Origin: a virus
Taxonomy: Duplodnaviria; Caudoviricetes
Length of the DNA: 64,000 bases
Virus record (IMG/VR): IMGVR_UViG_3300037499_000135
Location: 5,056-69,055 of that record
Direction: 5' to 3' (one strand)
Shown: piece by piece, positions 1 through 47,779 of the stretch
Layout of the letters: every line of letters starts with the position of its first letter
Numbering within the stretch: the first letter of the stretch is position 1
The notes under the pieces: model-generated
What the model saw: the letters and a program-made list of their open reading frames with translations, nothing else
Database searches by the model: none
Told to the model about the DNA's origin: nothing
Position numbers and translations under genes: made by a program

Positions 1-2410
1 AGTACGGGTGCGCGTCCTCGTGCGGCGGCTGCACACACACACCCTCCTGCCCGATGTGGCAAGACCCCCACTGCGCGGCATGCCCGTAGATCCGGCCGTC
101 ATCCGTGACCGTGATCGGCGTCGGCAGAGACAGCTTCGGATCCGAGAACCACTCCGGCGCCGGACGCCACACCTCACCCGCGGCAACCAGCGCCGCACGC
201 GTCTTGGCCGGGACCGGCTCGACCACCGCGAGCGTACGGACGACGTCCTCACCGACCGGCTGCCCGCCGGCCACCACCGCGCCCTGCTCGTCGAGGAGCG
301 CGATGTACGCCTCGGCGAACGCCGGGATGTCCACCAGTGTCGCTGCCCTGATCCGGCCGCCGTGGAAAATCATCTTCTCCGGCTGCGCGAAGAGCATCTC
401 GAAGAGGTCGCCCTCGTCGCCCTCTTCAGTCCCGGCGTTGACGTCATCAGGCCACACGAACTCGACGTCCGCGTCGGCGATGGAGTCGGCGTCGATGGAT
501 ACGCCGCGGAGGAACTTGCCTTCGATCTTGGCGTGGGCGCGGCGGCCGTTGTCGTCGGACAGGTCGAGGACACCCGAGCCCATGATCTTGCCTTCGTCAC
601 GCCAGACCTTGTCGATGCGGCCGACGTTGACGGCGACGGTATGCGGCTCCCCGCCGTGGGAGTCCTCAATGTTCCACCTGAGTGGTACCGGCAGCTCGGC
701 CCAGTTGAGGGCGCCGGGCGCGAACTCGCGGCCGTCGCCGGTGACGATGCCCTCAACGGCGAGGACGCCTTCCCAGGGGGCGGTCTTGCCTGTGTAGTCC
801 ATGCCCTTGTCGTCGGGCTTGTCCATGTCGTCGTCGTCTTCGGCGTACAGGGCGGCCTGCTGTTCCAGGGCGGCGGCTTCGGTGGCGTGGCAGCCCATGA
901 GTTCGTCGGTCATCTCTTTGACCACGGCCCACGGCGTATCCGCGCCGCAGTCCGGGTGATCCTGCTCGACGCGGTACGGCATCGTGCCCTCCTGGTCGGT
1001 GGTCTGGTGCGGCATTGTGTCCGCGGAAGCCGCCAAGATCATTCCGGCGGCGGCTTGCTCGTCGGGCTGCGGCCAGACGGTGACGAGCGTGCCGCGGCAC
1101 CGCGAGCCGCCGAGGCAGCCCGTGTAGCCGCCGGACGGGTACGCGGTCCGGGCGTCGGGCAGCGTGGTGTAGCGGGTGCCGTCGATGTCCCGACAGGGTT
1201 TACATGACGACCGGTCCAAGATTTCTGTGGCCGTGTACTCGGCTGGCGGCGCGACCGCGAGCACCGCGAGACGGCCCTCGTTCTGCGCGGCACTCATCGC
1301 CGCACCCACCTGCTCCTCAACCGCCGCACCCGACAGCCCTGCGAGGTGCTCGTCGACCTGAACGGCTACCTGCGGCGGCGTACCGGAGCCCCACACGCGC
1401 ATCGCCTGCCGCACCGCGGACTGCACCAGCCCAACACCCAGGTAACGGGCCGTCGTACGGCCGACCTGGCGGAGCCGGTCCCGGATCGCCGCCGCGGTGA
1501 GCGCCTCGTCGTCGAGCGACCATTCGGGGACGGTGACGCCTTGTGCTTCGGCTTCGGCCTGCTGGGCTTCGCCTGCCTCCCGCGCGTAGGCGATCATGCG
1601 GGCGATCAGGAGACGTGAGCCGTCGTCGGTGTCGACGGTGAGTCCGTCGAGGCGGTCGAGGTCGTCGGCTTCGGCTGCGGCTTGGATGCTCGCGGTGACC
1701 TCGGCGCGCATCGCCTCCTGGACGGTGGCCCACGCTTCGACGGTGGTGTCGACGGCTTCGTGCCACGCCTTGTCCATCTGCGCGAAGTCGACGCGGGAGG
1801 CGAGCTCCAGCTCGGTGGGCTGACGGCGCAACGGACCGGCCGCCGCGGTGACGGACTGGCCGAGCGGGATGTCGGTGTGGTCCCCGGCGAACGCCACCCG
1901 GATCCGGTCGAAGGCGACCGGGCCGAGGCGTTCCTCCAACGCGATGATGAGATCCAACTCATCCGAGTACGCGGCACAGATATGCGGTACAAACGGCGAG
2001 TGCTGTATGGGGAGGTCCGGGTGGTTGGGGGTTTCTTCCAGCGCGTACGTCACGTCGTGGCGCACCTCTCCCAGACCGGGGCCGTCCGCGTCGCGGTCGT
2101 CGCCGACGGCCCACACCCACGACGGTGAATCGGTGTTCGCGTTCCAGTGGTTCGCGCCGAACACCCGCGCCGTGATCGGCCCCACAAACTGGGAGGCGGC
2201 GATCGCGCGGACGTTGCCGATCAGCTCGTTGCGCTGTTCCTCGGTCCACGCGGCGCCGTCGTCTCCGAGGAAGTACAGCGTCAGATGCAGATCCTCAGCG
2301 GACTCACCGCCCTCGATCGCCAGCCGCGCAGCGTCCTCCACCGTCGGCATCAGCGCAATCATCGCGCCCGACATGTGCGAACCATCAGCCGCGGCTGTGA
2401 GCGAACCCAT
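1..2410 (-). CDS. Partial (>=803 aa, runs off left edge) head fusion protein: N-terminal 2H phosphoesterase-like domain + MuF-like minor head domain + capsid maturation protease-like region
   Basis: Hand translation from ATG at 2410 (GGAG upstream) is open to position 1. Motifs: DLHLTLYFLG and VPHICAAY (2H pair about 101 aa apart); SCKPCRDIDG...GCLGGSRCRG (MuF-type Cys motif); WEGVLAVEGIVTGDGREF...GRID and WFSDPKL...TDDGRIYGHAAQWGSCHIG (actinophage protease-like). Directly follows portal. Absent from the ORF track because it has no stop in the window. Confidence 0.8.
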   Translation of the reverse strand, partial: MGSLTAAADGSHMSGAMIALMPTVEDAARLAIEGGESAEDLHLTLYFLGDDGAAWTEEQRNELIGNVRAIAASQFVGPITARVFGANHWNANTDSPSWVWAVGDDRDADGPGLGEVRHDVTYALEETPNHPDLPIQHSPFVPHICAAYSDELDLIIALEERLGPVAFDRIRVAFAGDHTDIPLGQSVTAAAGPLRRQPTELELASRVDFAQMDKAWHEAVDTTVEAWATVQEAMRAEVTASIQAAAEADDLDRLDGLTVDTDDGSRLLIARMIAYAREAGEAQQAEAEAQGVTVPEWSLDDEALTAAAIRDRLRQVGRTTARYLGVGLVQSAVRQAMRVWGSGTPPQVAVQVDEHLAGLSGAAVEEQVGAAMSAAQNEGRLAVLAVAPPAEYTATEILDRSSCKPCRDIDGTRYTTLPDARTAYPSGGYTGCLGGSRCRGTLVTVWPQPDEQAAAGMILAASADTMPHQTTDQEGTMPYRVEQDHPDCGADTPWAVVKEMTDELMGCHATEAAALEQQAALYAEDDDDMDKPDDKGMDYTGKTAPWEGVLAVEGIVTGDGREFAPGALNWAELPVPLRWNIEDSHGGEPHTVAVNVGRIDKVWRDEGKIMGSGVLDLSDDNGRRAHAKIEGKFLRGVSIDADSIADADVEFVWPDDVNAGTEEGDEGDLFEMLFAQPEKMIFHGGRIRAATLVDIPAFAEAYIALLDEQGAVVAGGQPVGEDVVRTLAVVEPVPAKTRAALVAAGEVWRPAPEWFSDPKLSLPTPITVTDDGRIYGHAAQWGSCHIGQEGVCVQPPHEDAHPY

Positions 2411-4175
2411 TGCTACTCCGAGAAGAGACGGTGGTCAGAAACCCGGTCGTATCCAGATGCGGGGAAAGACGGCCGATCGTGAACCAGCCGAAGCTGTCGA
2501 GCCGCGCCTCATACGTGCCGGACGTACCCGGCCGCGGCAGCGAGTGCAGCTTCAACGCGGCATGCGTGAACGGACAGGAGTACGCGTGCTGCGAACACAA
2601 ACCGGGATGCAGCAACTCCGGCGGCCGGCCGGTTGTGAACCGGACGGCGTGCAGAAGTTGTGCTTGGCGGGTCATGCGTTCGGCGCGTTCGGTGGCGGCG
2701 GCTTCGCGTGCGGTGTCCGGGTCGGGCGGGGTGCGGTCTTGCGGGGGTGGTTCGGGTTCGGTGGCGGCTGGTGGTTCCTCGCCGGGGGCGATGGGTGCGG
2801 TGGCTGCGATGGTGACTTGTTCGCCGGTGAGTTCGGACAGGGCGGATCCGGCGCCGGAGGGGAGGGTGTGGATGATGACCTTGAGGGCTTGTTCCTTCAG
2901 CTCGTCGTCGCTGGGCTTGTCGGCTTCGTTGAAGCCGGTTTCGCGGCGGAGTGCGGCGCCGTTGATTTCGAGGCGGTCGTAGAGGGCGATGGCGTCGTCG
3001 GAGCGGTCGGGGCGGAGGGTGAGTTCGGACATGTCGTACCAGACGACCCAGCTGGCCCAGTCCTCCACGCCGGATGCTTTGAGGCGGGGCTGGAGGTAGC
3101 CGGTGGTGAGGGCTTGGGCGATGAGTTCGGCGTCGGGGGCGACGTTGACTTTGAGGCTGCTCTCGTCTGCGGCCCAGGCGTTCCAGTGGTTGAGGTCGCC
3201 CATGCCCAGGAGGACTTCGGGTGGGACGTTGAGCTGGGAGGCGAGGCGTTTGATGGCCGAGTCCCGCTTCTCAATGATCTTGTCGTCGATCTTCAACGTG
3301 AAGTCGATGTGACGGATCTTCTCGACGTACTCACCCGGCACCCGGATCGGCATCGGCAGCACACCCGACGCCGTCCCCGGCTCGCTGATCGCCTTACGCC
3401 CGTTCTCGATCCACTCCTCCATGAACGGGTCCGGGGCGTCGGCGAACTCCTCACGCACAGGGAAGGTGACCTCGTCAGGGAAGACGACGACGCCAGCGGA
3501 CGCGAGGCGGGAGAGGTACTGGGCGATGATGTGCCGGTTGACCAGCTCCAGCTCGCGCATGGTGGTGCGGGCGGCGCGGGCTGGGCTGTCGGCAACATGG
3601 TGGTAGCGCTTGTTCGGCCGCCACACCCGGATCGGGGCCATGGAGTCAGGGGCGAGGGGACGCCAGTTGTAGCCGTCGCGGGGGTTGTTCTCGTCGATGA
3701 CTTCGTAGTGGCCGCGTGCGGCGCGGACTTCGTCGATGGACCGGACAGCCCACTTCTCGATGCCGTCGACGTTTTCGACGATGACGTAGCCCTCGCCGGG
3801 GACTGCGAGTTGGGTGCCGAGGCCGTTCATGATTTGGGCTTGTCCGGCGACGCCTCCGGCGAAGGTGGTCATCAACTCGACGGCGGTTCCGGCTTCCTGG
3901 CGTACGGGTTCGTCGGCGCCGGGTTCCAGCTTCGCGGCGTAGAAGCGGATGCGGGAGAGCATGTTGGCTTCCCAGTCGGCGGCGTACCGGAATTCGCCGA
4001 GGTCTGAGTAGTACTGCCAGGCTTCTTCTTGCCAGGTGTCGGGGGTGCGGATGAGTTCGGTGCGGGGGCTCGTGACGGGGGCTGCGGCGGCGGTGAGGGC
4101 GTTGGGTTGTGCGGCGGCTGGTGGTGTGGGGGTGGGCAGGCTGCCGCGTCGGGTGAAGGCGCTCCACCAGGCCAT
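2385..4175 (-). CDS. Phage portal protein (596 aa) with Pro-rich linker and C-terminal extension
   Basis: Size, position after terL, and actinophage portal-like segments (WQEEAW.YY...GEFRYA, LAVPGEGY, IRVWRP, PPEVLLGMGDLNHWNAW). Confidence 0.88.
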   Translation of the reverse strand: MAWWSAFTRRGSLPTPTPPAAAQPNALTAAAAPVTSPRTELIRTPDTWQEEAWQYYSDLGEFRYAADWEANMLSRIRFYAAKLEPGADEPVRQEAGTAVELMTTFAGGVAGQAQIMNGLGTQLAVPGEGYVIVENVDGIEKWAVRSIDEVRAARGHYEVIDENNPRDGYNWRPLAPDSMAPIRVWRPNKRYHHVADSPARAARTTMRELELVNRHIIAQYLSRLASAGVVVFPDEVTFPVREEFADAPDPFMEEWIENGRKAISEPGTASGVLPMPIRVPGEYVEKIRHIDFTLKIDDKIIEKRDSAIKRLASQLNVPPEVLLGMGDLNHWNAWAADESSLKVNVAPDAELIAQALTTGYLQPRLKASGVEDWASWVVWYDMSELTLRPDRSDDAIALYDRLEINGAALRRETGFNEADKPSDDELKEQALKVIIHTLPSGAGSALSELTGEQVTIAATAPIAPGEEPPAATEPEPPPQDRTPPDPDTAREAAATERAERMTRQAQLLHAVRFTTGRPPELLHPGLCSQHAYSCPFTHAALKLHSLPRPGTSGTYEARLDSFGWFTIGRLSPHLDTTGFLTTVSSRSSNGFAHSRG

Positions 4176-46813: not shown

Positions 46814-47203
46814 GTGAGCTTGGTCGAGTTCTTCTCCGCCGATGACGTCGCCTGGCAAGAGGGCGCCCCCTGCACTACCACCGGCTTCGACTTCGTCCCC
46901 GACGTCGAGACGGACGAGGGGCTCGACACCGCGCAGCAGTGGTGCCGCACCTGCGACGTACGCACCCAGTGCCTGGCGTGGGCCATGCTCAACCGGGCCG
47001 AAGGCTACTGGGGCGGCACCACCACCTACCAGCGGGATCAACTCCGGCGTGTTCGCACCCGCGCGAAGTGCCCGATCTGCCAGGCCACCGACCTCGTGTA
47101 CACCGACCCGCACGAACTCTGCCTGTGCTGCGGGGCATCGTGGATCCGCGACGTACGCGAGGAACCCATCGCCGCCACACCGCTACCATCAGCCGCAGCC
47201 TGA
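46814..47203 (+). CDS. whiB: WhiB-like protein with C-terminal zinc ribbon
   Basis: WQEGAPC...AQQWCRTC..RTQC...GYWGGTT..QR; CPIC...CLCC. Confidence 0.8.
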   Translation: MSLVEFFSADDVAWQEGAPCTTTGFDFVPDVETDEGLDTAQQWCRTCDVRTQCLAWAMLNRAEGYWGGTTTYQRDQLRRVRTRAKCPICQATDLVYTDPHELCLCCGASWIRDVREEPIAATPLPSAAA

Positions 47204-47224: not shown

Positions 47225-47779
47225 ATGCAGAAAATCCCGACCCTCTTCGTCCGCAACCCCGACGACCGCCGCCACGTCCTGCCCGAGGTCACCCCGGGCT
47301 GCGAGTGGGTCCTCGCTGGGGAAGGACTCGCGACCCGCAAGTGGGACGGCACCTGCACCAAGCTCGACGAGGACGACGTGTGGTGGGCGAGGCGCGAGGT
47401 CAAGCCCGGCAAGACGCCGCCACCCGACTACGTCCCGATCGGCACCGACGAGGTCACTGGGAAGACGGTGGGGTGGGAACCGATCGAGCAGTCCTCGTTC
47501 GCGAAGTACCACACTGAGGCGCTCACCCACACGGGGCTGATGGTGCCCAGCACGTACGAACTCTGCGGCCCGAAGATCAACGGCAACCCGGAAATGCTCA
47601 GCCGCCACACTCTCATCCTCCACGGCTTTGCACCGTCGTCCGAGACCGACGACATCAAGGCCGCGCCACGCGACTACGAAGGCCTGCGTGACTGGCTGCG
47701 GGATCGCCACTACGAAGGGCTCGTCTGGCATCACGCCGATGGACGGGTGGCGAAGCTGAAGGCGAAGGACTTCCGCTAG
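47225..47779 (+). CDS. RNA ligase-like nucleotidyltransferase (DUF5565/Rnl1-like)
   Basis: MQKIPTLF, ATRKWDGT (KxDG adenylation motif), TYELCGPKINGNPE, EGLVW, AKLK. Confidence 0.75.
   Translation: MQKIPTLFVRNPDDRRHVLPEVTPGCEWVLAGEGLATRKWDGTCTKLDEDDVWWARREVKPGKTPPPDYVPIGTDEVTGKTVGWEPIEQSSFAKYHTEALTHTGLMVPSTYELCGPKINGNPEMLSRHTLILHGFAPSSETDDIKAAPRDYEGLRDWLRDRHYEGLVWHHADGRVAKLKAKDFR

Follow-up and report, generated by a model that had tools for sequence, protein, structure and literature searches.

Why a phage head protein should begin with a predicted phosphoesterase is the question raised by the gene at the left end of a viral DNA stretch of 64,000 nucleotides, which comprises bases 5056-69055 of the 69,055-bp IMG/VR virus record IMGVR_UViG_3300037499_000135 (estimated to be 77% complete). 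This whole stretch is called the window here, and coordinates in the parent contig are given with the locus id L004. The gene is a head-assembly polyprotein gene of a soil actinobacterial, temperate Streptomyces-type siphophage, and it carries the only recognisable prohead protease of this phage. Its product consists, in order, of a 2H phosphoesterase domain, a MuF-like region that would associate with the portal or the DNA, a small alpha/beta domain, a serine protease, a beta-rich domain and a terminal helix. As the best explanation of the whole we propose, with slightly better than even confidence, that the 2H enzyme is a capsid-loaded cargo that would be freed by the protease in cis, be injected with the DNA and cleave a phosphodiester.

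The gene was missing from the default list of open reading frames because it is cut off by the window edge. The minus-strand frame is open throughout from the ATG at 2408-2410 to the left edge of the window (803 codons), and the full gene in the parent contig has 963 codons, L004:4574-7465(-), the last 160 of which lie to the left of the window. A hidden open frame of at least 803 amino acids had been described in an earlier note on this DNA; this frame is real, being complete at 963 codons, preceded by a ribosome-binding site and abundantly represented by homologues. The gene and its N-terminal domain comprise the following features:

1-2410, minus strand: head polyprotein gene, first 803 codons (open frame; 881 homologues)
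2416-2419, minus strand: ribosome-binding site GGAG, 5 nt upstream of the ATG
1856-2371, minus strand: predicted 2H phosphoesterase domain, residues 14-185, LigT/ThpR-like (AlphaFold2 model, VIA-align, Foldseek, PHROG)
2279-2287, minus strand: motif 1, H42-L-T44 (H and T in 147 of 147 representatives)
1976-1984, minus strand: motif 2, H143-I-C145 (H in 146 of 147 representatives)

A model of residues 1-195 was built with AlphaFold2 on an alignment of 51 sequences. Its mean predicted local distance difference test score (pLDDT) was 91.6, with low values at both ends, and the predicted model has the bilobed alpha+beta fold with pseudo-twofold symmetry that is typical of 2H proteins. When this model was used in a Foldseek search, E. 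coli LigT was retrieved first (E 4.8e-7), and essentially all significant matches were 2H enzymes. In VIA-align, Thermus thermophilus TT0787 (1iuh) gave a Z score of 14.8 with 159 residues aligned and a root-mean-square deviation of 3.3, followed by the D. radiodurans cyclic phosphodiesterase (CPDase; 5h7e; Z 14.5), a P. horikoshii protein (Z 13.9), LigT (Z 13.2), Usb1 (about 13), an AKAP18-type domain (Z 12.3) and a Burkholderia phage phosphodiesterase (Z 10.8). Acb1 (7t26) was found at rank 38 with a Z score of 10.1, behind LigT, Usb1, AKAP18 and VP3. Sixty-six chains had a Z score of at least 8, and all were 2H proteins among the matches listed. The best matches among predicted viral structures were Gordonia and Mycobacterium phage proteins named 'RNA ligase', many of them of 900-1100 residues, and PHROG families named 'RNA ligase' and 'head maturation protease' matched strongly (2e-27 for phrog_2659 and 1.5e-38, respectively).

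Conservation at the active site was counted over clusters at 50% identity, of which 147 representatives were compared. All 147 of these diverse sequences have H42 and T44 and 146 have H143, whereas position 145 is mostly Cys (87), with Thr (54), Ala (5) and Ser (1) making up the rest. On the basis of the model and this alignment, the domain is predicted to represent a divergent LigT-like 2H phosphoesterase clade whose active site is under purifying selection, and hydrolysis is the predicted activity. Cys145 reads, in the aligned family, as a clade-wide alternative to Thr and not as a lesion of this gene. The view of Cys145 as the mark of an inactive enzyme was set aside as the principal interpretation, since Cys and Thr replace each other at this position whereas the two His residues are invariant. 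The earlier note had called a 2H domain from two motifs 101 residues apart, and its positions for H42 (HLT, 2285-2287) and H143 (HIC, 1982-1984) were exact. The call itself was borne out by structure prediction (pLDDT 91.6, Z up to 14.8) and by the conservation of the two His residues across homologues, which had been set beforehand as a test (147/147 and 146/147). On the other hand, the suspicion that the Cys in motif 2 alters activity was largely removed, Cys being the majority state at this position.

The C-terminal half supplies the second element of the proposal. A model of residues 481-963 (pLDDT 78) consists of the small alpha/beta domain, a domain designated C1, a disordered hinge, and a domain designated C2 with the terminal helix:

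263-790, minus strand: capsid maturation protease domain C1, residues 541-716 (assemblin/T4 gp21 fold; Foldseek, VIA-align)
656-658, minus strand: His585, candidate catalytic His of C1
497-499, minus strand: Ser638, candidate catalytic Ser of C1
176-190, minus strand: L-V-A-A-G at the hinge (residues 741-745), within a disordered linker (model, alignment of relatives)
2-163, minus strand: start of C2, residues 750-930 (continuing to L004:4676), with the terminal helix at residues 940-959 (phrog_18402, phrog_29860)

The top Foldseek matches of C1 were the proteases of pseudorabies virus, herpes simplex virus 2, varicella-zoster virus, Epstein-Barr virus and human cytomegalovirus, all with probability 1.0, and T4 gp21 was at rank 47. 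In VIA-align against 48,161 chains, the varicella-zoster virus protease (Z 9.9, 124 residues aligned) and T4 gp21 (Z 9.8, 123 of 165 residues) were the best, and the proteases of human cytomegalovirus (Z 8.0) and Kaposi's sarcoma-associated herpesvirus (Z 7.1) came next. Of 47 sequences, all have Ser638 and at least 90% have His585, the two being spaced 53 residues apart. This pair fits the His/Ser pair of the assemblin fold, and a catalytic role may be assigned to it on these grounds. At the level of the predicted fold, C1 is thus confirmed as a capsid maturation protease domain, and the protease-like sequence noticed earlier in this part of the frame turned out to have a capsid-protease fold in two independent searches with conserved His and Ser. 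Pfam S77, S78 and S80 gave no match above cut-off for this protein, and Pfam on the C-terminal segment alone also gave nothing; a weak Peptidase_S77 match (E 0.026) was obtained for the relative P0127.

C2 is possibly a second divergent protease-like domain, and is treated as a lead. ESM pointed to Peptidase_S77/S80 at 0.92 with low counts of shared features, the hhalign comparison of C1 with C2 was not significant (probability 1.5%), and the fold search was made with the whole 483-residue model, which is a poor test of C2. In many close relatives (L008, L009, L020, L021, L023, L024, L030, L035 and L044-L046) about 110 additional residues are inserted right at the C1/C2 hinge (residue about 731; window about 176-220), which accounts for a length class of roughly 1080 residues.

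The third element is a peptide, new here, with the pattern [LVI]-x-A-A-[AGS], which is a candidate cut site of the protease. Two of its copies flank the 2H domain:

2387-2401, minus strand: L-T-A-A-A, residues 4-8, candidate cut site ahead of the 2H domain (low pLDDT)
1823-1852, minus strand: linker V-T-A-A-A-G-P-L-R-R, residues 187-196, candidate cut site behind the 2H domain (low pLDDT, conserved)

The polyprotein has eight copies of the pattern compared with 1.17 expected from shuffled sequences, which is a weak null model as natural Ala runs cluster. Six of the copies coincide with predicted domain boundaries or lie close to them (residues 4, 187, 304, 458, 741 and 926), and those at residues 4, 187 and 741 sit in linkers of low pLDDT. 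The linker copies, such as V-T-A-A-A-G-P-L-R-R, are kept in 94 full-length relatives despite variable neighbouring residues. When a relaxed motif, [LVIM]-x-A-[AS]-[AGSV], was counted among the 147 diverse representatives, it preceded the first 2H strand by 10-14 residues in 74 of 134 (55%) and was present 3-8 residues past the domain in 37 of 117 (32%), compared with a background expectation of 8.7% in the same proteins. Herpesvirus assemblins cut (V/L)-x-A-S sites between A and S, and the pattern in the polyprotein recalls these sites. Based on the conserved linker peptides on its two sides, we consider the chances about even that the 2H enzyme is released by the polyprotein's own protease; such a release had been suggested in the earlier note, and the linkers support it indirectly.

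Similar peptides occur in the neighbouring head proteins. The portal protein has L-T-A-A-A at residues 27-31 (window 4083-4097, minus strand), and the capsid protein has I-A-A-A-A and V-T-A-G at residues 140-152 (L004 about 4000-4050, minus strand), at the end of its coiled-coil extension (delta-domain); the capsid peptides are conserved in close relatives. Judged by their sequences, these linker-like peptides of the portal and capsid proteins may mark maturation cleavage sites.

Put together, the proposed course of events would be as follows. Membership in the protease/MuF polypeptide would carry the 2H enzyme into the procapsid, and the cis-encoded protease would cut at the linkers that bracket the 2H domain. 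Once released, the enzyme (about 20 kDa) would remain in the head and, like T4 Alt and the internal proteins, reach the next cell together with the DNA, where it would hydrolyse a phosphodiester of the 2',3'-cyclic, 2'-5' or cyclic-oligonucleotide kind. Of the possible targets, the most attractive would be a nucleotide immune signal, namely that of the cyclic oligonucleotide-based anti-phage signalling system (CBASS), of type III CRISPR (clustered regularly interspaced short palindromic repeats) or of a similar system.

The idea of a counter-defence cargo in such fusions is not new. In their passages on these domains, Iyer et al. (2017; PMC5512222) described polyvalent proteins with 2H domains, as well as fusions of 2H to MuF or portal domains, and proposed for the 2H domains the role of a Usb1-like RNase or of a degrader of nucleotides from nucleotide-activated defence. 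In the corresponding passages of Iyer et al. (2022; PMC9503650), the 2H-MuF and 2H-portal fusions were taken to suggest packaging in the head and injection against (oligo)nucleotide immune signalling. As far as these passages go, the counter-defence idea was thus already published in 2017 and 2022, and the earlier note restates it. A fully specified version, in which the 2H domain is excised at [LV]-T-A-A-A, is present in the capsid at a protease-like copy number, is injected, and destroys cyclic-oligonucleotide or 2'-5' immune signals before expression begins, is unlikely in our estimation. If this excise-and-inject version were true, no counter-defence enzyme that is delivered in the virion and degrades signals would have been demonstrated before this one, and H-x-C as second motif would represent a working variation of the 2H active site. 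Should the published prediction hold, actinobacterial phages would have a very common way to bring a signal- or RNA-degrading enzyme in the capsid; the enzyme would act before transcription begins, unlike Acb1-type early proteins, which would bear on the evasion of nucleotide-based defences in Streptomyces and its relatives. The locus itself offers nothing categorically new, but the family is large, cultured relatives exist, and the candidate cut sites provide a handle for proteomics.

Several observations weigh against the cargo proposal. The 2H domain fails the curated cut-offs of PF02834 (E 0.21; 12.2 bits against a cut-off of 23.3), TIGR02258 (E 0.007, spanning both His motifs; 16.2 bits against 65.7) and PF13563, the last of which is also below threshold in relatives, and phmmer with the 2H domain gave no match at E of 10 or less among PDB sequences. 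Motif 2 has Cys in place of Thr or Ser. The 2H fold is closer to LigT than to Acb1, and is uninformative on the substrate. As for the linkers, their motif is Ala-rich within an Ala-rich proteome, and the upstream copy could be part of the 2H domain instead of a cut site. For the middle region of this protein Pfam gives no match, and its comparison by hhalign with alignments of bona fide MuF N-terminal domains gave probabilities below 1% in all three ways tried. Finally, no experiment on the virion presence, cleavage, injection or activity of any member of the family was found in a literature search.

Among the other explanations, an action on RNA ends survives best. Host anticodon nucleases and toxin RNases leave 2',3'-cyclic phosphate ends, and the 2H enzyme might open such ends for resealing by a ligase or, as an exoribonuclease of the Usb1 kind, attack host RNA from the 3' end. 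The closest structures, LigT/ThpR-type cyclic phosphodiesterases and Usb1 (Z 13-15), are in agreement with this, and the phage encodes an RLIG1-like RNA ligase:

47225-47779, plus strand: RLIG1-like protein, 184 residues (PF17720 at 4.5e-8, covering profile positions 192-265 of 324 only)
46814-47203, plus strand: WhiB-family gene, upstream of the RLIG1-like gene (PF02467 at 4.8e-11)

However, the ligase gene is 45 kb away in a different operon, and Tpt1/KptA was not found in this genome. Five other records with a 2H head fusion were compared, namely the complete genomes of phages TurkishDelight and Baddon, a pair of IMG/VR genomes with a completeness rating of 100% and one with a rating of 75%; PF17720 was not found in any of the five, and neither an Rnl2-type ligase (PF09414) nor RtcB was found in the four complete fusion records or in this genome. 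Across these records, the 2H head fusion has no conserved RNA-ligase partner. The candidate of a dedicated RNA-repair pair of the 2H domain and the RLIG1-like ligase is weakened by this absence of the ligase from other fusion genomes. An RNase role was also considered in the passage of Iyer et al. (2017; PMC5512222) on these domains, and we assign the RNA-end explanation as a whole a low probability.

It is distinctly unlikely that the 2H enzyme acts late in the producer cell, against nucleotide signalling triggered by head proteins, with its packaging being incidental and without delivery. The gene does belong to the late head operon, and stand-alone 2H versions make up 21 of 146 representatives. 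In contrast, more than 120 of the 146 have the 2H domain attached to a MuF, portal or protease carrier, and the flanking linker peptides are conserved; this persistent fusion to carriers together with the conserved linkers suggests that capsid targeting has been selected for. A non-catalytic module with a nucleotide- or RNA-binding or assembly role, like the AKAP18 central domain, would be in keeping with the Thr-to-Cys change in the H-I-C motif, the divergence, the Pfam/TIGRFAM scores under threshold and the AKAP18-type binding domains among the structural matches (Z 12.3), but is very improbable in view of the essential invariance of both His residues and Thr44 in the 147 diverse representatives and of the free exchange of Cys and Thr at position 145, as would be expected if the enzyme is active and either side chain can supply the hydrogen bond. 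The late intracellular and the non-catalytic roles fit the conservation pattern less well than does the capsid cargo.

The genomic setting and the remaining parts of the polyprotein are consistent with a head-assembly protein that carries cargo. The features concerned are:

2385-4175, minus strand: portal protein gene, directly upstream (phrog_776 at 4e-125; PF04860 at 7e-7)
1040-1822, minus strand: middle region, residues 197-457, with a helical part and a Cys-motif core, MuF/SPP1 gp7-like (phrog_595, ESM Atlas)
830-970, minus strand: small alpha/beta domain, residues 481-527 (PWAVVK...GCH...AALYA; pLDDT about 95)

The start of the polyprotein gene overlaps the 3' end of the portal gene by 26 nt (portal end 2385, gene start 2410), and this place directly after the portal gene is typical of MuF. 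The product of the downstream gene, L004:2625-4460, is a major capsid protein of siphovirus type (NF033847 at 6e-166) whose N-terminus is extended by a coiled coil. Between the portal and major capsid genes there is no separate protease or MuF gene, and therefore the 963-codon gene supplies these functions of the head module. Megablast of the first 6 kb against a phage collection gave no match.

The Cys motif of the middle region has the form C403-x2-C406 ... C432-x5-C438-R-G and lies at 1097-1204, in accordance with the position of about 1090-1205 that had been given for it. The core as a whole, E-x7-QN-x-GR ... Y-x-A-x-E-I-L-D-x3-C-x2-C-x3-DG ... C-x5-C-R-G, resembles the end of the MuF/SPP1 gp7 domain. 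The Cys motif is matched by phrog_595 at 5e-7 and, in 6 of 29 relatives, by PF04233 below threshold (E 0.004-0.03); in the ESM Atlas, 16 of the 30 clusters nearest to the middle region carry PF04233, at 0.91. The region also occurs stand-alone (about 285 residues) and as a 2H-plus-middle protein (about 460 residues). A MuF-like nature of the middle region is plausible and, in our judgement, fairly probable, short of demonstrated membership in PF04233. Of the MuF-like domain proposed in the earlier note, the Cys motif stood, but the MuF label is not statistically secured. A 485-residue protein, P0306, matches both the Mu-type portal domain PF06074 (4.5e-15) and the Cys-motif middle region (2e-22), and therefore this region is also found fused to portal sequence. 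The small alpha/beta domain is followed by an acidic linker; the protein P0230 (242 residues) has the same module behind a 2H domain that stands alone.

Residues 1-200 match 881 proteins of 529-1686 residues, which are often named '2'-5' RNA ligase' (JGI) or 'phage minor head protein' (NCBI). An exhaustive search with the 2H module gave 1448 cluster representatives at E of 1e-3 or less, and the best 146 of these comprise 45 proteins with the module at the N-terminus, 59 with it inside the chain, 21 with it at the C-terminus and 21 in which it stands alone. The 2H module is mobile and widespread among head proteins. Relatives join it with canonical PF04233 MuF domains, with ADP-ribosyltransferase domains and with the same protease part. 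In P0149, P0140, P0141, P0051 and P0112, an ADP-ribosyltransferase (PF03496/PF01129) is located behind the middle region or between MuF and 2H; from this position, 2H and ADP-ribosyltransferase are alternative or joint cargo on the same carrier.

The cultured relatives are Streptomyces phages TurkishDelight (gp15) and phiSAJS1 and Gordonia phages Baddon, Ribeye and JKSyngboy. TurkishDelight gp15, named 'Capsid maturation protease and MuF-like fusion protein', is 63% identical in the 2H domain and homologous in the protease part, and the Gordonia phage proteins (Baddon gp18 and those of Ribeye and JKSyngboy; 'RNA ligase' or 'head maturation protease') are homologous in both parts. In TurkishDelight and the Gordonia phages the gene is placed after the portal gene, as in the present phage. 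However, gp15 begins with a canonical PF04233 MuF domain and has its 2H domain internally at about residue 288, whereas the 2H domain is N-terminal here and the middle region belongs to a different, Pfam-silent family.

The fusions in the passages of Iyer et al. (PMC5512222, PMC9503650) share with the present gene the domain combination, the late-gene context and the proposed role. Here, in contrast, the 2H domain is N-terminal and a prohead protease is part of the same chain, and the flanking [LVI]-x-A-A-[AGS] peptides are not mentioned in those passages.

With E. coli LigT/ThpR and the 2',3'-cyclic phosphodiesterases of T. thermophilus, P. horikoshii and D. radiodurans, the 2H domain shares the fold (Z 13-15 over 145-159 aligned residues), roughly a fifth of the sequence (about 20% identity) and the two-His pattern of the active site. 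It differs from these enzymes in having Cys for Thr/Ser in motif 2, in its place in a putative virion protein, and in a sequence likeness that is undetectable against the PDB. The parallel with Acb1, the anti-CBASS 2H nuclease of phages (7t26, 7t27), stood as far as the superfamily fold and the phage origin are concerned (Z 10.1). It did not extend to membership, as Acb1 is a weaker match than LigT/ThpR-type proteins (Z 13-15) and has no sequence relationship to the head 2H domain. Judged from the model, the parallel is one of shared fold and not of clade. Moreover, Acb1 has about 150 residues and is made early as a free protein, whereas the present domain is part of a head-protein fusion.

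In T4, Alt and the internal proteins IPI-III are directed to the core of the prohead; gp21, the prohead protease, trims them, and they are injected together with the DNA. The protease described here shares the fold of gp21. In T4, however, cargo and protease are encoded by separate genes and the cut site is L/I-x-E, whereas here both are carried by one chain and the candidate site is [LVI]-x-A-A.

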